The notes: generated by a model from the letters alone, not told the origin. Counted from the first letter of the whole stretch, positions 2,436-56,517 are shown. The stretch: DNA of 63,961 nucleotides, filler included, from a bacterium (GCA_040757115.1; 5 parts of 5 records of this genome joined end to end with filler, not necessarily neighbours in it); one strand, 5' to 3'. A program made the numbers and translations.

Positions 2436-2679
2436 GTAACCGTTCACCGCACAGACACAGAGACGCAGAGAAAAAATTAAAAACTATTTACCAGACGCAG
2501 GATTCCATCACGGATTTTCATCAGTGCAATCTTTTGAGGACCGACATCTCATGATTGATTAACAATTGGGTTTTGATGTCCTATGTATTCCAATGATTGC
2601 CTCAATAATCTTTTCTGTTATCTGATTTATTTCTCTGTTCCTCTGCGTCTCTGCGGTAAATTACCACCTGAACGCTTAC
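2436..2679. mobile_element. Family A MITE-like element (GTAACCGTTCA...TGAACGCTTAC) with an internally deleted GxxExxY remnant on the minus strand
   Basis: Terminal inverted repeats; inverted CGCAGAGA(C)-type arms; minus-strand EINQITEKIIEAIIGIHRT and DGILRLVNSF-stop; no clear TSD. Confidence 0.8.
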
Positions 2680-3500: not shown

Positions 3501-3936
3501 GTAAGCATTCAGGTGGTGTAACAAAAGGAGATGTGGAGATTAAGGAGATAGGGAGATTTATTAGAAATTAGTAGAAACTAATAGAAATTTATGGAAATTT
3601 GGGTGGTGTCTGAAAATAACGCTAAGAGTGAAATCTATGCAGATTTGGTGTAAAAAAGGGGATAAGGAGATAAAAGGAGATATGGAGATTATTCATTGTA
3701 ATTTGCAAAATTTTAGAATGAATTTATCTCCTAATCTCCATAATCCCCATATCTCCTTTTCGGACACTATTTCAACCTTTATGCTAGATTGAGACACCAC
3801 CGAAATTTGTTGTTTTCCACAATCAATTTCTACCTATTTCTATAAATTTCAATCTATTTCTATTATCTTATCTCCATATCACCCTTATCTCCTTATCCCC
3901 TTTCTTACACTTTTGATATATAGCCTGAACGGTTAC
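3501..3936. mobile_element. Family A MITE-like element with GGAGATA-type arms, containing a nested family B element
   Basis: GTAAGCATTCAGG...CCTGAACGGTTAC flanked by 8-bp direct repeat AGAAATTT; its halves recur at 13669-13801 and 40539-40600. Confidence 0.9.
3602..3801. mobile_element. Family B MITE-like element (GGTGGTGTCT...AGACACCACC)
   Basis: 10-bp TIR, 8-bp TSD GAAATTTG; near-identical inverted copy at 10652-10851. Confidence 0.92.
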
Positions 3937-4794: not shown

Positions 4795-5168
4795 GTATGT
4801 GTTTAGCGTGTTCTGAATGATGCTAATTTAAGGCGTAACTCTTTGGTAAATAATAAGATGCCGATGTAAAATATTCCACGAAGAGCTTAATGCAAATATC
4901 AAAATGTAAAAAGCAAAATGACAAAGCAAAATGCAAAAATACTTGTAAGGCAATAAAAAAAATCAAATATTAAAAATCAAAAATAAGAATAAAAGAATTC
5001 CTTAATTTTGATATTTGCTCTTTGATTTTTGATATGATATTTGATATGTCATTTTGCATTTTAATATTTAATTTTTGATTTTGTATTACACAACTTGTTG
5101 TGTTTGAAGTGGTTTCGCACTAAGTCAGTACCATTCATTTGTGCTCTCTGACCACGCTAAACAGGTAC
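4795..5168. mobile_element. Family D MITE-like element (GTA.GTGTTTAGCGTG...CACGCTAAACAGGTAC) with AAATATC/AAAATG(C/T) heptamer arms
   Basis: TIRs; flanking near-direct repeat GAAAT(G/A)TGC; close copy at 17249-17567 and partial inverted copy at about 27520-27700. Confidence 0.88.
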
Positions 5169-5217: not shown

Positions 5218-5658
5218 ATGTCAGGTATGAGTGATAATGAGAGTAAGAATTTTTGGCTTACAATTCCAGGTATTATCACTGGAATATCTGCTTTTGTCAC
5301 CGCAATAGGTGGACTTCTAATCGCACTTCATCAAACCGGACTGTTGGGACGACCAAATAACCCTTCGCAACAGATAGAGATTAAAAGAGACAAAGTCTAT
5401 GTTGTGGGTAATGTTCGTGATGAATCAGGTAATCCTTTGAGCGGGGCAACTATCATTGCTATTAATACAGATAATAAACAGGAAATTGGAAAAGAAACAG
5501 CAGATACGGATGGTTCTTTTGAGATGAAGCTGGAATTCGACCGAAACAAAGACCGCATTAAGTTAATAACCCAAAAAGATGGTTATGAAAAGTATACGAT
5601 AGTATTAGGAACTGAGCAGGTTTCGTATCCATCAATATTGCTCAAAAGTAAAAATTGA
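5218..5658 (+). CDS. Membrane-anchored protein with a carboxypeptidase-regulatory-like beta-sandwich domain
   Basis: N-terminal TM helix; GNVRDESGNPLSGATI...TADTDGSF...KDGY. Confidence 0.7.
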   Translation: MSGMSDNESKNFWLTIPGIITGISAFVTAIGGLLIALHQTGLLGRPNNPSQQIEIKRDKVYVVGNVRDESGNPLSGATIIAINTDNKQEIGKETADTDGSFEMKLEFDRNKDRIKLITQKDGYEKYTIVLGTEQVSYPSILLKSKN

Positions 5659-5667
5659 GAGGTAATT

Positions 5668-6552
5668 ATGACTTTGAAATTAAAAAGTATTATTTATGCA
5701 ATTAAGTCTATCGTTTTAACTCCGAAGTTTTTTCTTCTTATTTTAATATTCATCATTATTTCTAATGTCCAGGCTCAGCGCTTATTGCCTAAAAGCATAA
5801 TATCAATAAAAGATAAGGCTGAAATGGTGCTAATCCCTGAAGGTCCATTTATTTCGGGTATGAACCAGAATGACATTAGAAATCTTATAAGAGGACTTAG
5901 GACACCAATGATGGATATCTATAAATCTGAATTCCCAATGAAAAATAAAATTCTTGGGAATTATTACATAGACCGTTACGAAGTTACAAATGAACAATAT
6001 GAACGCTTTATGAAAGAAACAGGTCATCGAGCTCCGAAATATTGGGACTGGCCTCAATTCAACGGTAAGCGTCAACCGGTAGTCGGTGTAGGATGGGAAG
6101 ATGCGAAAGCCTACTGCGAATGGGCAGGGAAAAGGTTACCAACTGAGGATGAATGGGAAAAAGCGGCACGAGGGACCGAAGGATGGATATGGCCATGGGG
6201 AAATACGCCAGATGAAGGAAATTTTAACGGCAGGGAACAGGCAAACTATGGCCCTGTAAATGTAGGCTGTTTTCCATCAGGCAATAGTCCTTATGGAATC
6301 AGTGATATGGCGGGCAATGTCTGGGAGATGACTTCTGGTATTTGGTGGAAAGGTAAGGATAAAACAATGCACACAATGCGTGGAGGTTCTTTTCTTAATA
6401 TATCTCCAGATGTTCGAGTAACTATCCGTTGGGCCGCTAAGAATGAAAAAGAGGGCGCAGAGTGGCTTGGCTTTCGTTGTATAATGGATGTTAAAGATAT
6501 GGAAAGATTTTCTACTAAACCTATTTTGAAACCGGGACGCATTAAAAAATAA
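5668..6552 (+). CDS. SUMF1 / formylglycine-generating-enzyme family protein, secreted
   Basis: YYIDRYEVTNEQY, PVVGVGWEDAKAYCEWAGKRLPTEDEWEKAARG, DMAGNVWE, RGGSF, GFRC. Confidence 0.92.
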   Translation: MTLKLKSIIYAIKSIVLTPKFFLLILIFIIISNVQAQRLLPKSIISIKDKAEMVLIPEGPFISGMNQNDIRNLIRGLRTPMMDIYKSEFPMKNKILGNYYIDRYEVTNEQYERFMKETGHRAPKYWDWPQFNGKRQPVVGVGWEDAKAYCEWAGKRLPTEDEWEKAARGTEGWIWPWGNTPDEGNFNGREQANYGPVNVGCFPSGNSPYGISDMAGNVWEMTSGIWWKGKDKTMHTMRGGSFLNISPDVRVTIRWAAKNEKEGAEWLGFRCIMDVKDMERFSTKPILKPGRIKK

Positions 6553-13568: not shown

Positions 13569-13668
13569 NNNNNNNNNNNNNNNNNNNNNNNNNNNNNNNN
13601 NNNNNNNNNNNNTTAATTAATTAANNNNNNNNNNNNNNNNNNNNNNNNNNNNNNNNNNNNNNNNNNNN
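13569..13668. other. Artificial contig linker
   Basis: N44-TTAATTAATTAA-N44, stop codons in all six frames. Confidence 0.98.
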
Positions 13669-16585: not shown

Positions 16586-16908
16586 GTAACTATTCACCAC
16601 GAAGAGCACGAAGGACACGAAATGGAATTTAAGGTCTTGTAATTTTCGGTAGTGTCTGACAATAACTACAATTCTTTTAACCACAAAGATCACAAAGAGT
16701 TTCACAAAAGAGTCAAAGATTTTTGAGAGAATAAATTTTTCCCTTTATTTCTTTGTGTATTCTTTGTGTACTTTGTGGTTAATTTCAGAGACCATCTAAT
16801 TTTCTTCGTGTTCTTCGTGGTGAATAGTTACGCGCATCCAATGACTCTATTCGATAATTCATCAAATTTCACTTCGTGCTCTCCGTGCCCTTCGTGGTGA
16901 ATAGTTAC
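16586..16908. mobile_element. Family A cluster (GTAACTATTCACCACGAAG...) with nested B-like element 16648-16796 and a GxxExxY 5-prime remnant
   Basis: TIR ends at 16831 and 16908; nested GGTAGTGTCTGA...TCAGAGACCATC with TSD TAATTTTC; minus-strand (M)KFDELSNRVIGCA at about 16832-16872. Confidence 0.85.
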
Positions 16909-17248: not shown

Positions 17249-17567
17249 GTACGTGTTTAGCGTGTTCCAAATTGCGTTGATTTGAGACTTAACTCTTTGT
17301 TAAACAATAGGATACCGGTGCGAAATATTCCACAAGGAGTTTAATGCAAATATCAAACTGTAAAAATCAAAATGACAAAGCAAAATGCAAAAATACTTGT
17401 AAGGCAATAAATTAAACACGAAGTCAAGATTTTTGATATTTGATATGTCATTTTGCATTTTAATATCTAATTTTTGATTTTGTATTACACAACTTGTTGT
17501 GTTTGAAGTAGTTTCGCACTCAGTCAGTACCATTCATTTGTGCTCTCTGACCACGCTAAACAGGTAC
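17249..17567. mobile_element. Family D MITE-like element
   Basis: Copy of 4795-5168 with a shorter core; flanked by direct repeat GTGACTC. Confidence 0.88.
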
Positions 17568-23077: not shown

Positions 23078-26000
23078 CTATAAAATCAATTTTTGAGATA
23101 AACCAAAATAATTTATTACCACCTGGACTTGCATTTATTAATATCCTATTCTCATCACCTCTTTCCCCCACCTTTTCGTCCTCTTCATTGTAGGAAGATA
23201 TTTTTATATTATCAATATACCTTTGATGTCTTTCTTCTAAATTTTTTCCTGGTTCCTGACCAACATAGACTTCAATACCCTGTAAATCAAGTCCCTTTTC
23301 TACAAGGATTTCTTTTAAGGAAGCAAGTTCTGACTCAATTAATTCTTTTAATTCAAAGTTTTCTACGACAAATTTAGCGAATATCTTTCCATCCTGCTGG
23401 GTTATTTTTAATTCTAATTTACCCAGATATTCGGGCTTGAGTTTAACCTGAATCTCCGAACTATCTTTTTTCAGATGAAGAGATGCTTCTTCTATGAATT
23501 CATAAAGTATTTCCTTAAATATTAAATTAGTCATACTTGCATCAGGTAATGAAGCTGGGATTTCTACCCTATTTGTCCCTTGAATCGCTGAATTGTAAGT
23601 TAAATTTATATTATTATCCTTTAATACCCCAGATTCATCTTGCTGATTTACTCTATTTTCAGTAAAGACTATTCTCTTTTTTACTGATTTAAACATTTCT
23701 GGTAAATTTATAAATGATTTTTGTTTATCTTCTGGTTTAATGTTATCTTCCTCTTTTTCTCTCTTAAAATTCATACTCTCTTGAAATAATACTGGTAGTA
23801 TTCTATGGAGTAATTCTACTCCTTTTTCTTGATGCATTGGAATAAAAGTATTTTCTTGTGGTTTAAAAATAGGCAATTTAGACATCTCTTCTATCTTTTC
23901 AACTCCTACTTTTTGCATAAGTGATAATAGTGAATCTTCATTATTGCGGATTGCGGATTGCGGATTGCGAATTGGGTTATCATCTATAAAATTTTGGATT
24001 TTAGATTTTGGATTTTGGATTTGTGGGATATCTATCTTTATCGTTGTCCCAACTACTAATTTCGGCTCCTCTTTTTTAACCTCTGGTGGCATATTATGTT
24101 TTGGTTGTTCTTGCTTTGTTTCCATTTCTATCTTCTCATCTTTTATCATCGTCCCGAGTATTATTTCCGGCTCCTTTGCCTTAACCTCAAACGGCTTACC
24201 AGTATTTAATTGCNNNNNNNNNNNNNNNNNNNNNNNNNNNNNNNNNNNNNNNNNNNNNNNNNNNNNNNNNNNNNNNNNNNNNNNNNNNNNNNNNNNNNNN
24301 NNNNNNNNNNNNNCGAGTATTATTTCCGGCTCCTTTGCCTTAACCTCAAACGGCTTACCAGTATTTAATTGCTCTGGTATTGACTCTTTTAGTAGTGAAA
24401 ACTGCGGAGTGGAGAGTGAGGGAATTATCTCTACTTTTTCCTCTTTTATCGTCGTCCCGTCTGTTAATTCAGGCTCTTTGACCTTAACCTCTGCTGGCAT
24501 ATTATGTTTTGGTTGTTCTTGCTTTGTTTCCATTTCTATCTTCTCATCTTTTATCATCGTCCCGAGTATTATTTCCGGCTCCTTTGCCTTAACCTCAAAC
24601 GGCTTACCAGTATTTAATTGCTCTGGTATTGACTCTTTTAGTAGTGAAAACTGCGGAGTGGAGAGTGAGGGAATTATCTCTACTTTTTCTTGTTTTATCG
24701 TCGTCCCATCTGGTAATTCAGGCTCTTTGACCTTAACCTCTGCTGGCATATTATGTTTTGGTTGTTCTTGCTTTGTTTCTATCTCTATCTTCTCATCTTT
24801 TATCATCGTCCCGAGTATTATTTCCGGCTCCTTTGTCTTAACCTCAAACAGCTTACCAGTATTTGACTGCTCTAACATTGACTCTTTTAGTAGTGAAAAC
24901 TGCGGAGTGGAGAGTGAGGAAATTATTTCTACTTTTTCTTGTTTTATCGCCGTCCCATCTGGTAATTCAGGCTCTTTGACCTTAACCTCTGCTGGCATAT
25001 TATGTTTTGGTTGTTCTTGCTTTGTTTCCATCTCTATCTTCTCATCTTTTATCGTTGTCCCAACTATTATTTCCGGCTCCTTTGTCTTAACCTCAAACGG
25101 CTTACCAGTATTTGACTGCTCTGGCACTGACTCTTTTAGTAGTGAAAACTGCGGAGTGGAGAGTGAGGAAATTGACTCTACTTTTTCTTGTTTTATCGTC
25201 GTCCCGTCTGTTAATTCAGGCTCCTGGACTTTAACCTCTGCTGGCATATTATGTTTTGGTTGTTCTTGCTTTATTTCTATCTCTATCTTCTCATCTTTTA
25301 TCGTTGTCCCAACTATTATTTCCGGCTCCTTTGCCTTAACCTCAAACGGCTTACCTGATTGCTCTGACACCGGCTCTTTTAGTAGTGAGAAGTGACCAGG
25401 GAAGAATGATGGAATTATCTCTACCTTCTCTTCTTTTATCGTCGTGCCGTCTGTTAATTCAGGCTCCTGGACTTTAACCTCTGCTGGCATATTATGTTTT
25501 GGTTGTTCTTGCTTTGTTTCCATTTCTATCTTCTCATCTTTTATCGTTGTCCCAACTATTATTTCCGGCTCCTTTGCCTTAACCTCAAACGACTTACCAG
25601 TGTTTGATTGCTCTGGCATTGACTCTTTTAGTAGTGAAAACTGCGGAGTGGAGAGTGAGGGAATTGACTCTACTTTTTCTTCTTTTATCGTCGTCCCATC
25701 TGTTAATTCAGGCTCTTTGACCTTAACCTCTGTTGGCATATTATGTTTTGGTTGTTCTTGCTTTGTTTCTATCTCTATCTTCTCATCTTTTATCGTTGTC
25801 CCAACTATTATTTCCGGCTCCTTTGCCTTAACCTCAAACGGCTTACCAATATTTGACTGCTCTAACATTGACTCTTTTAGTAGTGAAAACTGCGGAGTGG
25901 AGAGTGAGGGAATTGACTCTACTTTTTCTTCTTTTATCGTCGTCCCATCTGTTAATTCAGGCTCTTTGACCTTAACCTCTGTTGGCATATTATGTTTTGG

Positions 26001-27219: not shown

Positions 27220-27319
27220 NNNNNNNNNNNNNNNNNNNNNNNNNNNNNNNNNNNNNNNNNNNNTTAATTAATTAANNNNNNNNNNNNNNNNNNNNNNNNN
27301 NNNNNNNNNNNNNNNNNNN
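27220..27319. other. Artificial contig linker
   Basis: N44-TTAATTAATTAA-N44. Confidence 0.98.
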
Positions 27320-40459: not shown

Positions 40460-40862
40460 GTAACCGTCAGGTGGTAATTTACCGCAGAGACGCAGAGGAA
40501 CAGAGAAGATATGGAAATAAATCAGATAACAGAAAAGAGTAAGCGTTCAGGTGGTGTAACAAAAGGAGATGTGGAGATTAAGGAGATAGGGAGATATTAT
40601 TAAAAAAATTGGTAACTATTCACCATTCACAATTCACCATTCACAATTCACAATTTCTTCCCTAAATTTCCTTAATAATGGTGAATGGTGAATTGTGAAT
40701 TGTGAATTATCACTCTTCACGGTGTCAAGCAAACTTGGCCCAAGAGTTCGATGCACCGCTATAGCGCATCCAATGACTCTATTCGATAATTCATCAAATT
40801 TCACTTCGTGCTCTCCGTACCCTTCGTGGTGAATAGTTACAAAAATAGAAACTAATAGAAAT
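40460..40862. mobile_element. Triple-nested family A elements at the contig end; innermost is 40612-40840
   Basis: Left ends at 40460, 40539 and 40612; innermost flanked by AAAAAT(T/A)G; GxxExxY starts MEINQITEK (+, 40511) and (M)KFDELSNRVIGCAIAVHRTLGPSLL (-, from 40804). Confidence 0.85.
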
Positions 40863-40962
40863 NNNNNNNNNNNNNNNNNNNNNNNNNNNNNNNNNNNNNN
40901 NNNNNNTTAATTAATTAANNNNNNNNNNNNNNNNNNNNNNNNNNNNNNNNNNNNNNNNNNNN
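40863..40962. other. Artificial contig linker
   Basis: N44-TTAATTAATTAA-N44. Confidence 0.98.
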
Positions 40963-43900
40963 TTGCTAATCCTTTCCCCATCGCCTCGGCTATGTTTGTC
41001 CCTGGCTTACTTGCCGCTTGTTTAATATGTTCACCTAACAGATTACCAGCTATTTTAAATCTCTCTTCATCCGATACCTCTTTACCACTGAATATCTTTT
41101 CCTTGCCAGTTATCATTACGCCTTTTTGGTAGTAATCGGTAATTTTGTCAATATTTCCACTTACCTTCACAAGATAATCTAATTGAGCAGCATTAAGATT
41201 GCACCTCGCCGCTATCTGACCAAGTCCTACCTTTGTAGTTTGTAGTCCGGATAAGAATCGGTTATATCCCGTGATGCGGTCGCCAAATATATCCTTTCCA
41301 AAAGCAGCTGCACTGCCCAGATAGGTAATTTTCATAAAATTAGTAATTTTTGTTAGTTTTTGGAGGTTATTTAGTTTTTGAGTTAACTCGCCTATTTTAG
41401 CAATATCTTTGGCTTTTTTAGCGGCATCTAATGCCTTTCTTGCTTGGTCAATCTTAGGTGTAGTAAATGCATCTATGCCATTCAAGGCACTCATAAATCT
41501 TGAGCCTTTAGATAATTTAGCACCGGTAATAGCATCTTTTCCTGTAACAGCACACATGAGATTGTAATATTGCCCAATACCTGGTATAAGTGAGATACCA
41601 AAACTTAAAACACTCTTTACCCAGCTTTTACTCTGCTTGTATACTTCGGAATACTCTACTCTCGGCAAGCCCTCATCACCAGGTATATTTGCCAATTCTT
41701 CATCTGAAAGTGTTTTTACCTTACTAATGTCCAATCCATAAGATTCAAAGGTAAAAGCTCCACCCGGGACATACTTCTTCTGACCATTCGATACCAGGTA
41801 AACCGCATTACCAGAGCCTTTGACTAAATATGGGCTTTTGATTGGTGTGCCTGTTGGTATGGAGTTAATATCTCCATCTGGTACATTTTTTATAAATCGC
41901 TGTGCAGATATAACTGGAATTTCAGATTCATTTATCGGTCTTCTTCTACCATTTTCTATTACATAGTAGTCTGTAATTGCTTGATAATAGACATATCGTC
42001 CACCTATACTCATCCGGTCATCTCTTATATATTCTTTCTTATAATCTATCCCTTCTCTCATCCATGGTTCTATACGCCAGTATTTCCAGTATTTACTGTC
42101 TGCCTCCCATCTTGTTATTGCTTGAATTGTCCCATTAGGCACATCAGATGCATTTATTGATTTTCTTTTACCATCTTCTATCATATAGTAGTCTGTAATT
42201 GCTTGATAATAGACATATCGTCCACCTATACTCATCCGGTCATCTCTTATATATTCTTTCTTATAATCTATCCCTTCTCTCATCCATGGTTCTATACGCC
42301 AGTATTTCCAGTATTTACTGTCTGCCTCCCATCTTGTTATTGCTTGAATTGTCCCATTAGGCACATCAGATGCATTTATTGATTTTCTTTTACCATCTTC
42401 TATCATATAGTAGTCTGTAATTGCTTGATAATAGACATATCGTCCACCTATACTCATCCGGTCATCTCTTATATATTCTTTCTTATAATCTATCCCTTCT
42501 CTCATCCATGGTTCTATACGCCAGTATTTCCAGTATTTACTGTCTGCCTCCCATCTTGTAGAAACTTCTATTAAATCTGTCTTTTCCTTTACAATTCTAT
42601 GAAGTGCTGGAGTATCTACAATTGGCTTTTTTATCCCACCAATCATATAATAAACCTGTCCATCAGAGCCTTTAATTAATTCTCCATTGGAATACTTTAT
42701 CTTAGAAATTGGTTCTCCTTCATCAATTGATTGTAATTCTGAATTTGAAATTGTCTTTATCTCTTGTTGGTTAAATCCTAAAGCTTCAAATGTTATCTGG
42801 TTTGGAATTAGTCTTCTTAAACCACCTTCCATTAAGTATCGATGACCATCTTCATTCTGAAGTAAAGTTCCATTTGGATATTTAACTTTAGGTAAAGTAG
42901 CAAGAGTAGATAAGTCTTTAAGTTGTTCGCTTGAGACATTAACTGTATTTTCTATATTTAGCTCAAGTCTGAGTGCCCCTGGTAAAACCATCTTTTCCTG
43001 ACCAGGTATAACACTAACATTGTCAAAATATGTACTGGGTTTTTGATTTGCACCCTGGTCGTATTTTACCATTGGGTCATCAGATTCTATTCTTTTATCA
43101 CCTATCTGGATATAATCCACATACAGTTCTCTATCTGCTGAAACACCATGTCTTGATTCATAATGATGGTAATAATTGGTCTTGAAGAGATGCTTTATCT
43201 TATGCACCCAGTGGTCTAACCAGGTATAAATATCCTGGTCATTGGGATAAACAATATCTATCTTATGCTTGCCATCACTTAAAGGAACAGTAACTGTATA
43301 ATCTTTATACTCATCCGTAACAAACCATTCTTTGATTATCTCCCCATCTATTCGAAGTTGGATTAATGGAAAAGAACCTCCATCTTCCTTACCCTTTGCT
43401 CTGACAGTGATGGTCTGTTCTTTGATATTTAAACCTAATGCCTCCCATGTAGTCTTATCTGGTATCTCAATCTTGTTATCCAAGGAAGTCATATAAAGTT
43501 TATCATCAGCTCCACGAAGGATGGTACCGTTGGGATATTCTAAGTGCGGAAATCGTTCTGGGTCATCGGAAATGCCTTGTAATTTTGAAAATGGGACTGG
43601 TTTGACCTTTGAGATATCTAAACCTAAGTTCTCAAGTGTCTGTTTATTTGGTATAAGTTTTTTCTCACCTGCTGGTGTTATCAAGTAGTATTGCTCATCA
43701 TTAGTTTCAGAGTTTTTTAGTATAGTACCGATTGGATATTCGAAGTGTGGGATTTCATCACCTTTTGGAATGTTTTCTAATTCTGATGTAGATACCGGAA
43801 TTGCCTTGGATTCGTCAAGGTCTAAGTTTTTTAATGTTGGTTCATCCGGTATTTTTCTTCTTAAGCCATATGCCATCAGGTAATAATCATTATCTGCTTT

Positions 43901-45133
43901 TAATAATGTGCCATTATCGTATTTTATGAGAAGGATTTCTTCACCATCCGGGATAAGTTCTAATTCCTCATCTGCAAGTGTGATAATTTGAGATTTATCT
44001 AATCCTAAGTTATCGAATGTTTTTTCATCTGGAATGCGTTTTTTAGTCCCTGAAACAATCATAAATCTATTGTCTGCTTCGCTTCTAACTAATGTCCCAT
44101 CAGGGATTAAGGCCGAAAAAAGCAACTTTAAATCAAGGCTATCGACTTTATCATCCAGATTCAAATCGGCATTTTTGTAGCCTAATGTGATTATTTCTCT
44201 TTTATCTTCCCAGTTAGGGTCATTGGAGGTTTTACCAAAGGCTTCTTTGAGAAGGTTTAAATTAGAAAGATTATTATTAGCCCACAGGGTAAATATATCT
44301 TCCTGGTCTATCTTTTTATCTTTGTTAAAATCAACCTCTTTATATCCAGGTTGGGTTTGTAGTTGAGTTTTATCGTTCCAACCAGTATCACTTGATGTTT
44401 TCCCATAAGCCTCTTTAATCAGATTTGCATAAGGCATTCTATATTTTTGCCAGAGGGTAAATATATCCTTTTGGTCAACTATGCCGTCTCGATTAATATC
44501 TGCCTGTTTATATCCTTCTTTGACCACTTCTCTTACAACATCTTCTATTGGTACTAATCTTCTTCTCCACCATCCTTGTCGCAACCACTTTATTTTTCTC
44601 ACCAGATTAACTACATCTTCCCAGCCCGTATCACCTGCTTTTTTATTTAATGCCTGCTCAATTTTATTTAGCATGTTTCTAACAGCACTATCTCTAAAAG
44701 AACGAGAATAGGCAAATCTCTTCAGGTCTTCTATGGTTATCTTATCATCCCTATTTTTATCCAGGTTTTTATAGCCAGTTCCAGGGATAGGTACTTCCTT
44801 TTCTATTTTCTCCCATTCTGGTTCGCCTTCCTTTTTACCCAATCCCTGTTCAATCTTATTTAGTTGAGCACTAATTTGTGGGGAATGTATCTTCAAGTCA
44901 GAGATATTTACTTTAGCATCGTTATTCAAATCGAAATTCTTGTAGCCAGTGTTTGGGATAGGTTTTGTAGTATCTTCCCAGCCAATATCCCCTACTTTTT
45001 TCTTCATTGCCTCACGCAACAATCCAAGTCGGACCATATTACCGAATGTTGGGTCAACAGGCTCATCTTCCTTTTTAGGTTGATGAGTAGTAAGTAATAG
45101 TTTTGGGTCTAACATAACATTATTAGTAGCCAT
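40963..45133 (-). CDS. Large modular protein (over 1390 aa, 3-prime end truncated): EF-hand/dockerin-like repeats, about 60-aa GTL repeats, CBM60-like domain, pre-toxin-TG-like region
   Basis: DLNNDAKVNISDL/DINRDGIVDQKDI repeats; GTLL...YYL...RRxIP..TF..LGL repeats; IDIVYPND...DRELYVDYIQIG; LIPGIG...AVTGKDAITGAKLS; GGAGG RBS. Confidence 0.8.
41963..42558 (-). repeat. 222-bp (74-aa) essentially exact coding tandem repeat, about 2.7 copies
   Basis: Period measured at 41963/42185/42407. Confidence 0.95.
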
Positions 45134-45375
45134 TTTGGCACCTCCTCTGTAATTATAGTAAGCAGATTTAACGGATTTTAAAACAAAAAAGCCTTCTTGG
45201 TTTTAGATTAATGCCAGAAGGTTTAGCTTTCCTTTTTTATTTTCCTGCTGAATTTATGATTACCATAGAGATAGAGACTCATTTTCTTTTTACGCTCCTT
45301 GTTAATTTCCCTCCTTTGTGTATATATTATACTACATAATTTTAAGTTTGTCAAGAGTTTTTTTCAATTTTTTTT

Positions 45376-45643
45376 GTAACTATTCACCACGAAGAGCACG
45401 AAGGGCAGGGAGATGTTACAGAACAAATCTTTTTATGCCTTCTTTCAATCTTTCCACATTGAAATTTATCAATAGACCAACCTTAAATAGTAGTCAGTAG
45501 TTAGTAGTCACTAATTACTGTCCACTCTTCACCTCTTCCCTACTGACTACTATCTACTCTCTACTATTTTAGGTAATGACTCTATTCGATAATTCATCAA
45601 ATTTCACTTCGTGCTCTTCGTGTCCTTCGTGGTGAATAGTTAC
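45376..45643. mobile_element. Family A element with both ends of a GxxExxY gene, interior replaced by AGTAGTC/CTACT-type arms
   Basis: GTAACTATTCACCACGAAG...CTTCGTGGTGAATAGTTAC; minus-strand KFDELSNRVI and KVGLLINFNVERLKEGIKRFVL-stop. Confidence 0.88.
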
Positions 45644-45648
45644 CTGCA

Positions 45649-46728
45649 TTATTTGTAGTTAAGAAAAAGTTGTCCCCAGTTTGTTTTAAGCATCTCATTA
45701 ACCCTTTTTTCCCCAACAGCAGGATACCAGTATAAATCATGATAAAGCCTTGATGCGGCATAAGACCAGGGGACGATTGGTGTGCGAAGTAAAATATGTT
45801 CAAACGGTTTGAGGAAACCGTGATATATTGCCTTCTGACCTTTACTGGCAAAGGTATCACCACACTTAAAGCCAAAGTTGACACCCGATATATCCTCACC
45901 CACTACCTCTATTTCATTTGGGTTACCACACCCCAGCCCCATTTCGTGTGCCAGTCGAATGAAGCCGAGAGCGAGTGGGTCAAATCCCTGGATTTTAGCA
46001 GAGATAGCATCAATTGCTACCTGGTCAGAACTGGCTAAGATGTAATTTGTAACATGTGGTTCCATACAGCGAGGGCCAGGACCACTGCCCGCAATAGTTC
46101 CATCCATCACTGCAAAAATGCCGCTATGAATCTCCTTTTGAATAGTTAAAAGGTCAACCAGGGTCTCATGAATAACGCTGTGTGTCCAGTGTCTTTTTTG
46201 GGATAAAAGACCTCCAAAGGCATTCTTCATTGCCCCAGTAATCGTAGTGAACACATGCGTTTTCACGGTTGGCAGGTGAATGATACTCTTCCCCTGAAAC
46301 ATCTTTGGAATAAGAATACCTTCTGGATACACCTTATCCAGAACAAGTATCTTCCCTTTCGGTTCGTATCTTACCCACTCTATAGGTTTCTCATTCAAAT
46401 AAACCGTAGATAGACCATATTTATCTATCACTAACTTATGTTTATTATTTACCTCTCCGACTCTATCATTGACGACAACAGTGCGATTATGGGCACCAAT
46501 GATATTTTGTGGTGGATAGCCGTCATTAAGAAGGGTTTTTATTACCCCTTCTAATTGCCAGGGTGTAGTTGAGCACGCCGGATACCAGTGATGCCAGGAA
46601 ATGTTAATTTTAAGAAGAACAACTTTATCCCTGGGTAAAAAACTCTCATATTCGGCTAATTTCATTAACCGTTTATAATCCTCGAGTACCGTTTCCGGCT
46701 TTGTTTTTAAAACTGCAACTTTACTCAT
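45649..46728 (-). CDS. DUF362 domain protein
   Basis: LLKINISWH...CSTTPWQLEG, HLPTVKTH...TGAMKNAFGG, AVMDG...GPGP, DQVAIDA. Confidence 0.88.
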   Translation of the reverse strand: MSKVAVLKTKPETVLEDYKRLMKLAEYESFLPRDKVVLLKINISWHHWYPACSTTPWQLEGVIKTLLNDGYPPQNIIGAHNRTVVVNDRVGEVNNKHKLVIDKYGLSTVYLNEKPIEWVRYEPKGKILVLDKVYPEGILIPKMFQGKSIIHLPTVKTHVFTTITGAMKNAFGGLLSQKRHWTHSVIHETLVDLLTIQKEIHSGIFAVMDGTIAGSGPGPRCMEPHVTNYILASSDQVAIDAISAKIQGFDPLALGFIRLAHEMGLGCGNPNEIEVVGEDISGVNFGFKCGDTFASKGQKAIYHGFLKPFEHILLRTPIVPWSYAASRLYHDLYWYPAVGEKRVNEMLKTNWGQLFLNYK

Positions 46729-54082: not shown

Positions 54083-54376
54083 GTAACCGTTCACCGCAGA
54101 GACACACAGACGCAGAGAAGAAAATTAAAATTTATGGACGATACGCTTAACATCCCTGATTTTCATCAGTGCAAGCTCTTGAGTCCAACAACATTAAACT
54201 TGCCCTGATGAAAATCAGGGATGGATTAACAAATCTGGCTTGCCGGCTGAACATTCGGCAAGCAGGTCCTATGTATTTCAATGGCTGCACCAATAATCTT
54301 TTCTGTTATCTGATTCATTTCCATATCTTCTCTGTTCCTCTGCGTCTCTGCGGTAAATTACCACCTGAACGGTTAC
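54083..54376. mobile_element. Family A element with a GxxExxY remnant and nested 73-bp hairpin (54151-54223)
   Basis: TIR; 8-bp TSD GGGTAGTC containing the ilvN stop; minus-strand MEMNQITEKIIGAAIEIHRT and KRIVHKF-stop. Confidence 0.93.
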
Positions 54377-54443: not shown

Positions 54444-54543
54444 NNNNNNNNNNNNNNNNNNNNNNNNNNNNNNNNNNNNNNNNNNNNTTAATTAATTAAN
54501 NNNNNNNNNNNNNNNNNNNNNNNNNNNNNNNNNNNNNNNNNNN
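54444..54543. other. Artificial contig linker
   Basis: N44-TTAATTAATTAA-N44. Confidence 0.98.
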
Positions 54544-56088: not shown

Positions 56089-56517
56089 GTAACTATTCAC
56101 CACGAAGAGCACGAAGGACATAAAGATGTTACAGAACAAATCCCTTTATGCCTTCTTTTAATCTTTCCACATTGAAATTTATCAATAGACCAACCTTGAT
56201 ATTTGCCAATTTCATATATGGTAATGGGTCAGTGAAATGGGGGATTCTCCTGAAAGTAGGAAGTAGGAGAGTAGGAAAGTAGGAAAGGGGGAGACATTGC
56301 CCCCAGAAGAGGAATACCGTGCACATCCTTTATCCCTTTCCTACTTACCTACTACCTACTTGCCTACTATTTTCATTGCTTTGTCCTCCGCAGGTTAATG
56401 TTCATTTCCCCAAATAACTGATTTATTACCATATATGTCAATATTTGAGCTTCATGAATTCGATAATTCATCAAATTTCACTTCGTGCTCTCCGTGCCCT
56501 TCGTGGTGAATAGTTAC
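56089..56517. mobile_element. Family A element with GxxExxY ends and GTAGGAA/TTCCTAC arms
   Basis: TIR; near-TSD AATTT(G/T)AG; minus-strand YMKLANIKVGLLINFNVERLKEGIKGFVL-stop and KFDELSN. Confidence 0.88.

Follow-up and report, generated by a model that had tools for sequence, protein, structure and literature searches.

The locus at 45376-45643 raises the question of how a bacterial genome comes to hold small genes whose two ends survive around a middle that has been removed or replaced, and what carries such remnants from place to place. A preliminary description of the window, by which we mean the whole stretch of 63,961 nucleotides that was analysed, had placed GxxExxY copies of this kind at seven sites, read them as products of recurrent hollowing, and proposed that heptamer arms and gene ends together form a cis-acting unit on which the protein may act in trans, in the manner of RAYT/REP pairs. 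Our analysis retains part of that picture and replaces the rest. The hollow copies are MITEs: they are non-autonomous, they have cis-acting ends, and they need a protein made elsewhere. We put at roughly three in four the probability that they are MITEs derived from one-gene cassettes and moved in trans by a single-ORF IS66-family transposase.

The focal element and its neighbours

The assembly is a metagenome-assembled genome (MAG) of 462 contigs and 4.32 Mb, and the window joins five of these contigs (C6, C7, C8, C9 and C53) by runs of N and a linker, TTAATTAATTAA. The joints lie at 13569-13668, 24214-24313, 27220-27319, 40863-40962 and 54444-54543, and distances and neighbourhoods across them are not real. 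Several of the window contigs begin or end inside GTAAC-ended repeats, the repeats at which the MAG breaks.

Table 1. Coordinates of the focal element, of related elements in the window, and of IS66-family copies with the same type of end.
Feature	Position	Strand	Length	Description
Focal hollow type-2 cassette, foldback element	45376..45643	-	268 bp	From sequence, fold and clustering
Left terminus	45376..45388	+		GTAACTATTCACC, IS66/ISBst12-type end
Left arm	45388..45412	+		CACGAAG, CACGAAG, degenerate CAGGGAG; 9-nt period; read directly
C-terminal GxxExxY remnant	45416..45478	-	20 codons	GLLINFNVERLKEGIKRFVL and stop; weak TIGR04256 match, positions 96-116
Centre	45479..45574	.	96 nt	AGTAGTC-type heptamer hairpin in place of ~80 codons
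N-terminal GxxExxY remnant	45575..45607	-	11 codons	VKFDELSNRVI; sister copies reach HMM position 54
Right arm	45607..45631	-		Three CACGAAG (CTTCGTG on + strand), 9-nt period, directly upstream of gene remnant; read directly
Right terminus	45631..45643	-		GGTGAATAGTTAC, inverted copy of left 13 bases
Type-2 copy	56089..56517	-	429 bp	KFDELSN, internal piece (..HEAQILTYM), then KLANIKVGLLINFNVERLKEGIKGFVL and stop; cluster of 4
Nested MITE	56221..56429	.	209 bp	GTAAT...ATTAC ends, AGTAGGA arms; inside 56089-56517
Type-2/GTGAATT hybrid	40612..40840	-	229 bp	~24 N-terminal GxxExxY residues (KFDELSNRVIGCAIAVHRTLGPSLL), no C-terminus
Type-1 end fragment	40460..40538	+		CGCAGAG arm and MEINQITEK; cut by another element starting at 40539
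Type-2 end fragment	16832..16908	-		Arm and KFDELSNRVIGCA; abuts 246-bp element at 16586-16831
Hollow type-1 copy	2436..2679	-	244 bp	CGCAGAG arms; no duplication; cluster of 29
Hollow type-1 copy	54083..54376	-	294 bp	Exact 8-bp duplication GGGTAGTC; cluster of 23
Composite element	3501..3936	.		Same end family, GGAGATA arms; duplication AGAAATTT
Own broken IS66-family copy	C198:3060-4623			Ends GTAACCGTTCAGG..., 1563 bp apart; one TAG and one TAA
IS66-family copy in a relative	L059		1737 bp	Ends GTAACTACTCAGG; intact 522-aa ORF
IS66-family copy in a relative	L060		1505 bp	Ends GTAACCGTTCACAGG; intact 468-aa ORF

With 13-bp ends and no ORF besides the gene remnants, the focal element has the size and TIRs of a MITE (Table 1). 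As single-stranded DNA it folds at -56 kcal/mol (z -10.7 against shuffles), and no Rfam family reached its gathering score anywhere in the window. Every residue that is invariant in 24 intact GxxExxY proteins (G22, G24, E27, Y30, D67, E77 and K79, that is, the G-x-G-x-x-E-x-x-Y motif and the catalytic D...E-x-K) has been deleted from it. Its C-terminal piece gives only a weak TIGR04256 score (C9:4460-4528, E 0.1), the remnants being too short, and its membership of the family therefore rests on longer sister copies and intact genes (up to E 2e-47). Its cluster has two members, the lone sister copy lying at C418:12279-12378. The focal copy is without a target duplication (flanks TTTTTTTT / CTGCATTA), a point that weighs against the IS66 reading. 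In the sister genome G001 the same site holds a different element, with CACAGAG/CGCAGAG arms, ending 4 bp away. Public runs X1-X3 hold contigs that stop at the ends of the focal element, with no joints spanning the site; they showed no empty allele of this copy and no excision that could be confirmed. In X1 and X2, which are public groundwater metagenome runs (contigs), word depth summed over 45351-45473 and 45556-45678 was ~50-300x unique flanks, a figure that is not a copy number.

The seven GxxExxY places are as first described, and each is now bounded as an exact element or fragment; both gene ends, however, are kept at only four of the seven (2436-2679, 45376-45643, 54083-54376 and 56089-56517), the remaining three (16832-16908, 40460-40538 and 40612-40840) holding N-terminal sequence alone. 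One of the seven has an exact duplication and two have flanks that match at 7/8, namely 40612-40840 and 56089-56517 (AATTTGAG / AATTTTAG). The copy at 2436-2679 falls within a continuous 96%-identity match to G001.

Two further elements of the window, at 4795-5168 and 17249-17567, have ends of another family (GTAYSTGTTTAGCGTG...) and TCAAAAT-type arrays, with lengths of 319-374 bp; G001:C90 lacks the former, whose 8-9-bp duplication is near-perfect, and the flanks of the latter agree at 7/8. A 1408-aa ORF on the minus strand (40907-45133) runs off the contig start and encodes three near-identical ~60-residue repeats (..AITRWEADSKYWKYWRIEPWMREGIDYKKEY..) together with many short D-rich repeats.

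Ends, target duplications and IS66-family transposase genes

Ends of the form GTAAC-NN-TTCA, in which NN is almost always CG, TA or TG, occur 1182 times in the assembly, against 53 expected from base composition. Adjacent left-right pairs of these ends (n=299) are most often 200-300 bp apart (160 pairs), with a second peak of 20 pairs at 450-500 bp, and pairs of this end type span 168,790 bp, or 3.9% of the assembly. The family is far larger than was first seen; on the protein side, a TIGR04256 search of the genome matched 122 places at E <= 10, of which 16 are nearly full-profile, two of these with an internal stop.

These ends delimit units that have moved. Exact duplications flush with the ends measure 8 bp in 77 of 269 strict elements (<800 bp), as compared with 7 bp in four and 9 bp in none. 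A search that tolerated one mismatch in the ends gave 1093 candidate pairs, 169 with an exact 8-bp duplication and 28 with one that differs at a single position; a control with flanks displaced 8 nt further out gave 0 pairs with at most one mismatch. Two clean pairs of filled and empty sites distinguish the genome from its sister G001, an insertion polymorphism in both directions: the element at window 3501-3936 is filled where G001:C90 is empty with a single AGAAATTT, and G001:C429 is filled, with AAAATACC on both sides, where our own C112 is uninterrupted. An explanation without mobility, in which the copies are artefacts of assembly or scars left by recombination in a paralogous gene family undergoing decay, would accord with a window concatenated from five contigs and with the breakage of both MAG and public-run contigs at these repeats. 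It is refuted, and in our estimation almost certainly wrong, given the 197 pairs with duplications of at most one mismatch against 0 in the control, the two filled/empty site pairs, the many copies that lie in long contigs with unique flanks, and the presence of the same element type, with duplications, in unrelated genomes.

The outer 11-13 bp of the MITEs are common to single-ORF IS66-family transposase genes. Autonomous partners with the same ends are present in relatives (L059, L060 and L062), and the ORFs of L059 and L060 both combine DUF6444, zf-IS66 and DDE_Tnp_IS66 in a single frame. The transposase-bearing IS copies are without heptamer arrays. GTAA-type ends together with an 8-bp duplication are a general hallmark of the IS66 family in ISfinder. 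A specific counterpart is ISDge4, a single-ORF element of the ISBst12 group from Deinococcus geothermalis, for which PMC12898284 gives ends GTGACTACTCAGCA / GTAACTGCTCAGCA, an 8-bp repeat and observed transposition; an end from our own genome, GTAACTATTCAGCA, agrees with GTAACTGCTCAGCA at 12/14 positions, and both elements start with GTAAC and give 8-bp duplications. Taken together, the same-ended transposase genes, the ends of ISDge4 and the 8-bp repeat identify the copies as MITEs most likely moved by an IS66 transposase.

At the same time, no intact IS66-type transposase was found in this assembly, where the six PF03050 matches comprise the broken copy on C198 (two stops) and five fragments, and this counts against the IS66 reading. 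An intact copy may have remained unassembled; the MAG contigs break at these very repeats. The ends, the duplications, the insertion polymorphism, the subfamily structure described below and the transposase genes bounded by the same ends are all direct observations. From them we infer that the elements are moved in this organism by an IS66-family transposase, and that the GxxExxY nuclease serves as cargo, or at most as a helper, and is not itself the transposase. The earlier logic of ends acting in cis and a protein acting in trans holds: the copies are indeed non-autonomous, but the trans-acting protein is most likely the IS66-family transposase instead of GxxExxY.

Founder deletions, heptamer arms and the encoded proteins

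We measured hollowness on DNA, as an HMM census is too insensitive for remnants of 10-13 residues (two elements scored for both ends). When clustered (85% identity over 80% of length), 601 elements gave 289 clusters, the largest having 60, 29, 23, 20 and 19 members with mean identities of 88-97%; the five window copies that could be placed fall into clusters of 29, 23, 19, 4 and 2. The intact 459-bp type-1 element is covered by 150-340 blastn HSPs at its ends; within the ORF the number is ~100 in the first ~60 nt, 6-20 in the middle and 58-172 in the last ~40 nt, and coverage falls from ~100 to ~10 HSPs within 10-20 nt. So sharp a fall means that most copies have one common breakpoint, and shared breakpoints point to a few hollowing events followed by amplification rather than to a recurrent, per-copy process. 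Breakpoints do differ among the copies in the window, as had been noted, whereas genome-wide the subfamilies have breakpoints in common, and the idea of recurrent hollowing does not survive. In G001, likewise, at least eight CGCAAAG-armed copies join position 1516 of the query (L007) to position 1797, with one common breakpoint. For that CGCAAAG-type cassette, which is without GTAAC ends, comparison with five relatives gave no clean empty site. In another genome, G012, which holds mostly N-terminal fragments, an in-frame fusion of N-terminal residues 1-57 to the C-terminus lies between GTAATCGTTCACC ends (L049, G012:C78).

The type-2 centres do contain heptamer arrays, as described, and their filling is non-random, being made up of arm arrays from cassettes that carry four-helix-bundle genes or, at 56089-56517, of a complete nested MITE. 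AGTAGTC-type arrays like those in the focal centre also flank the four-helix-bundle gene at C26:7397-7717, and next to another such gene, at C31:3133-3453, lies DNA that matches the GTGAATT hairpin of 40612-40840 at 97.8% identity. The nested 209-bp MITE has an exact 8-bp duplication, CATATATG (56213-56220 and 56430-56437), made of the TYM codons of the gene, and independent copies of it elsewhere in the genome carry other duplications. The lengths in the 19-member family run in 7-bp steps (208, 215, 222, 229 and 236), which shows that the arrays gain and lose units. The hollow copies thus go back to a small number of founders, formed by deletion and by the insertion of nested MITEs, that were amplified afterwards. 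As a separate observation, a GGAGATA-armed MITE sits at the identical spot in a type-1 N-terminal remnant (after ..CAGAAAAG and before A..) at two places, window 40460-40603 and C112 near 5500-5900 (L134 1240-1900), reflecting either a copied composite or a preferred target.

Nor is there support for counting the gene ends as part of the cis-acting unit, in which they had been included. The largest subfamily (46-60 copies, 34 of them with a duplication at <=1 mismatch) consists of arms only, with no coding remnant; a 292-bp subfamily retains solely the C-terminal 68 codons; and the 222-bp type-2 hybrid subfamily, to which 40612-40840 belongs (cluster of 19, 97% identity), has just ~24 N-terminal GxxExxY residues, with duplications at 16 of its 19 copies. 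The gene ends are dispensable bystanders. The type-2 N-terminal fragments number 31, none reaching beyond HMM position 54, and no intact CACGAAG-type gene was found in the assembly, an incomplete MAG; G001 has an intact type-2-like gene with CACGAAG arms but different outer ends.

Full-length genes show what the parent may have looked like. Units of 459-472 bp between GTAAC ends enclose a complete 125-codon gene on C34, C460, C178 and C25, and a full gene is held by one of 195 duplication-validated elements. An intact copy scores 162 bits against TIGR04256 (cut-off 35) and 157 bits against PDDEXK_3, PF13366 (cut-off 22), its remaining profile match being a weak one to Cas4 only. Intact genes are under strong purifying selection (dN/dS 0.05-0.16), and this, with the invariance of D67, E77 and K79, indicates that the cargo clearly does something. 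Its structure model has a pLDDT of 96, and the neighbours of that model are generic PD-(D/E)XK proteins, both in Foldseek (best E 1.7e-3; Cas4 SSO0001, lambda-exonuclease-like, Hjc) and in VIA-align (best Z 8.0; 3ijm, BpuSI, Cas4); these fold searches gave no transposase-like relative and no functional lead, and a PDB sequence search with the intact protein gave no match at E <= 1. Literature searches on GxxExxY or its Pfam and NCBIfam identifiers found nothing concerning mobility. Among 20 full or near-full genes of this genome, GTAAC-type ends within 400 nt are present on both sides of only five, on one side of eight and on neither side of seven, and this scarcity, with the existence of other outer ends, is a further point against the IS66 reading. 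At C256:23621-23959, C386, C437, C133 and L122 (G001:C189), armed genes are enclosed instead by outer inverted repeats of other kinds (CGACCTGTGAAATAGG...; GAGCTTATCCTTACCCACA...), so that armed cassettes seem to change vehicles.

All intact GxxExxY genes here lie between inverted arrays of a 7-nt core with an 8-11-nt period, the core being specific to the protein lineage (by eye); at loci in relatives, also by eye, arrays stand on both sides at 20 of 23, on one side at two, and one is unclear. Cores and proteins pair across genomes, CGCAGAG with MEINQITEKII.., CACGGAG with LTNQIIGTAIEVHRY.., ACAGGAT with ELTEKIIGCAYKVYN.. and CGCAAAG with the ..VNNL clade, and 27 of ~37 GxxExxY cores fit C-R-C-R-R-A-K by eye. 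Between type-1 lineages, 4-fold sites are 47-68% identical, as against 71-90% for upstream and 57-90% for downstream arm windows (34-42 nt), with 0-2 differences in the 26 nt that form the core of the upstream arm. The alignments therefore indicate that the arms are conserved beyond synonymous sites and under selection; each lineage keeps its own arm motif across genomes, and the protein may act on it, as first proposed.

The same architecture surrounds an unrelated gene. Four-helix-bundle genes (TIGR02436, '23S rRNA IVS protein'), of a family that includes the DGR accessory protein Avd, are armed likewise at 18 of 18 loci examined (C356, C226, C413, C409, C407, C26 and C430 among them), with their own core per lineage; GTAAC-type ends bound two of the 18, and C407 has an exact duplication, AATAATTC. 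Arrays of at least three units are present at both ends of 147 of 197 duplication-validated MITEs and at one end or more of 180, the control being 165 of 2000 random 67-mers. Because the arrays go with the MITEs and not with the transposase copies, and because they are conserved above 4-fold sites, IS66 alone does not explain the arms. Arms as Shine-Dalgarno-like landing pads were considered and rejected: the cores are often not purine-rich (TCAAAAT, TTCCAAA, GTGAATT), and they are reversed in one relative. No description of heptamer arrays beside these genes, or of the parent cassette, was found in the openly accessible literature; the link of armed cassettes to IS66 ends, and the architecture that they have in common with four-helix-bundle genes, are additions of this work.

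An exact 19-mer, the terminus plus the first CACGAAG unit, occurs at 33 loci in other phyla (SAR324, several Gammaproteobacteria, Bacteroidales, Akkermansiaceae, Nitrospira and others). At 10 of the 33 a second end lies within 900 nt, and of these 10, six have an exact 8-bp duplication and two a 7/8 match; at two further loci, with no second end in reach, a type-2-like gene follows directly after the arm. Terminus, arm and gene thus travel together across phyla. PF03050 matches are present in three of five other-phylum genomes that hold the 19-mer, the strong ones having other ends; the sole copy between GTAACTATTCAGCAC-like ends in those five genomes (L131) is a partial copy with a weak match.

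How far, then, might the encoded proteins contribute to movement? Ends of the GTAA type with flush 8-bp duplications mark transposition by IS66-family DDE enzymes, and they speak against a RAYT/REP-like scheme in which GxxExxY is itself the mobilising enzyme, reading the heptamer arms of its lineage and excising or copying the armed units, with the GTAAC ends incidental. Such a scheme would explain why each arm core remains with its protein lineage from genome to genome, why arms are 71-90% identical where 4-fold sites are 47-68% identical, why the catalytic D-E-K is invariant under a dN/dS of 0.05-0.16, and why armed genes occur without GTAAC ends. It would not explain why the same ends enclose transposase genes that have no arms, why an unrelated four-helix-bundle protein occupies the same architecture, or how the type-2 family was amplified though the assembly holds 31 fragments and no intact type-2 gene, and in its fold the protein is a minimal PD-(D/E)XK domain of generic type, without a transposase-like relative. 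We regard this scheme as very unlikely; as to mechanism, the RAYT/REP analogy fails.

A second possibility leaves transposition to the IS66 transposase and makes the arms sites where the cassette's own protein acts as helper or keeper, perhaps by cleaving the second strand or a hairpin or cruciform, by autoregulation, or through an addiction or defence role that lets armed cassettes outcompete plain MITEs. Arm conservation that exceeds neutrality, arms near-universal in MITEs and absent from transposase-bearing copies, a gene under purifying selection and the fit of 27 of ~37 arm cores to one consensus (by eye) would all be expected, and the retention of heptamer cores while the 1-2-nt spacers differ between the arms of one element suits motif recognition over base pairing. 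Even so, gene-less copies have spread without a cognate gene in the assembly, two unrelated folds would both need to read heptamers, and the arms are reversed relative to the gene in at least one relative (L037); we judge this reading unlikely. In a broader reading, heptamer-armed cassettes with either gene could be a distinct and ancient selfish class whose arms are recognition sites of the encoded protein, a two-part transposon with a DDE transposase in trans and the nuclease on the arms, acting in second-strand, hairpin or cruciform cleavage or in homing or retention. If true, this would explain both the co-travel of terminus, arm and gene across phyla and the near-universal arming of the MITEs here; we rate it as unlikely.

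Under the reading that we prefer, movement in trans by an IS66-family transposase, the course of events can be outlined. The parent would be a 460-480-bp mobile insertion cassette with an IS66/ISBst12-type terminus, GTAAC-YR-TTCA, at each end, laid out as terminus, two to four lineage-specific heptamers, a 125-codon GxxExxY (PD-(D/E)XK nuclease) gene, inverted array and inverted terminus. A handful of internal deletions and nested insertions of sister MITEs would have produced shortened founders, which a single-ORF IS66-family DDE transposase, acting in trans, would then have copied round the genome, duplicating 8 bp of target each time. Gene ends would remain only where they adjoin the ends that the element needs.

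Relation to known mobile elements

GxxExxY and four-helix-bundle proteins are encoded by very common, multi-copy bacterial genes of no known function, and they now have a concrete context, as passengers of tiny cassettes on IS66-type ends that make up ~3.9% of this assembly. Their function thereby becomes testable, with transposase plus or minus nuclease and with arms intact or mutated. The same context explains a class of heptamer arrays and gene fragments that are otherwise a source of confusion in annotation and of breaks in metagenome assemblies.

Close precedents are MITEs and mobile insertion cassettes (MICs; the term is used, for example, in PMC5444012 and PMC6199540), MIC231/IS231 being an instance of the latter. 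Both are bounded by ends and lack a transposase, and MICs carry passenger genes. The elements described here are similarly short, with TIRs, target duplications and many copies, trans-mobilisation being inferred, and their full-length form has one passenger gene that lies between IS-type ends without a transposase and moves with them as a unit. Unlike in MITEs and MICs generally, only two kinds of small, nucleic-acid-related gene serve as passenger (GxxExxY or four-helix bundle); heptamer arrays that are conserved and specific to the lineage enclose the passenger, and terminus, arm and gene travel together across phyla. From insertion sequences of the ISBst12 group the copies differ in having no transposase and in their subterminal heptamer arrays, and the genome's own IS copy is broken.

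With REP/REPIN-RAYT systems they have in common a small gene between inverted repeats that are also present many times as gene-less palindromic units. Here, however, the gene encodes a PD-(D/E)XK nuclease and not a Y1/HUH transposase, and the units end as IS66 elements do and duplicate 8 bp of target, neither of which is known of REPINs; moreover, a cognate gene in the genome was not needed for the type-2 burst, as far as an incomplete MAG can tell. In Tn7, a restriction-enzyme-like nuclease, TnsA, works with a DDE transposase, TnsB. The association of a PD-(D/E)XK nuclease with a DDE-type transposition system is an analogy only, for the nuclease gene here lies on a passenger cassette and not beside the transposase, and its fold matches are generic.

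Finally, the four-helix-bundle cassettes recall the intervening sequences of 23S rRNA, which carry a four-helix-bundle ('S23p') ORF (PMC4990558). Both are selfish units of ~0.4-0.5 kb with inverted ends and one small TIGR02436 ORF; the copies described here, in contrast to those intervening sequences, lie outside rRNA and insert by transposition with duplications.
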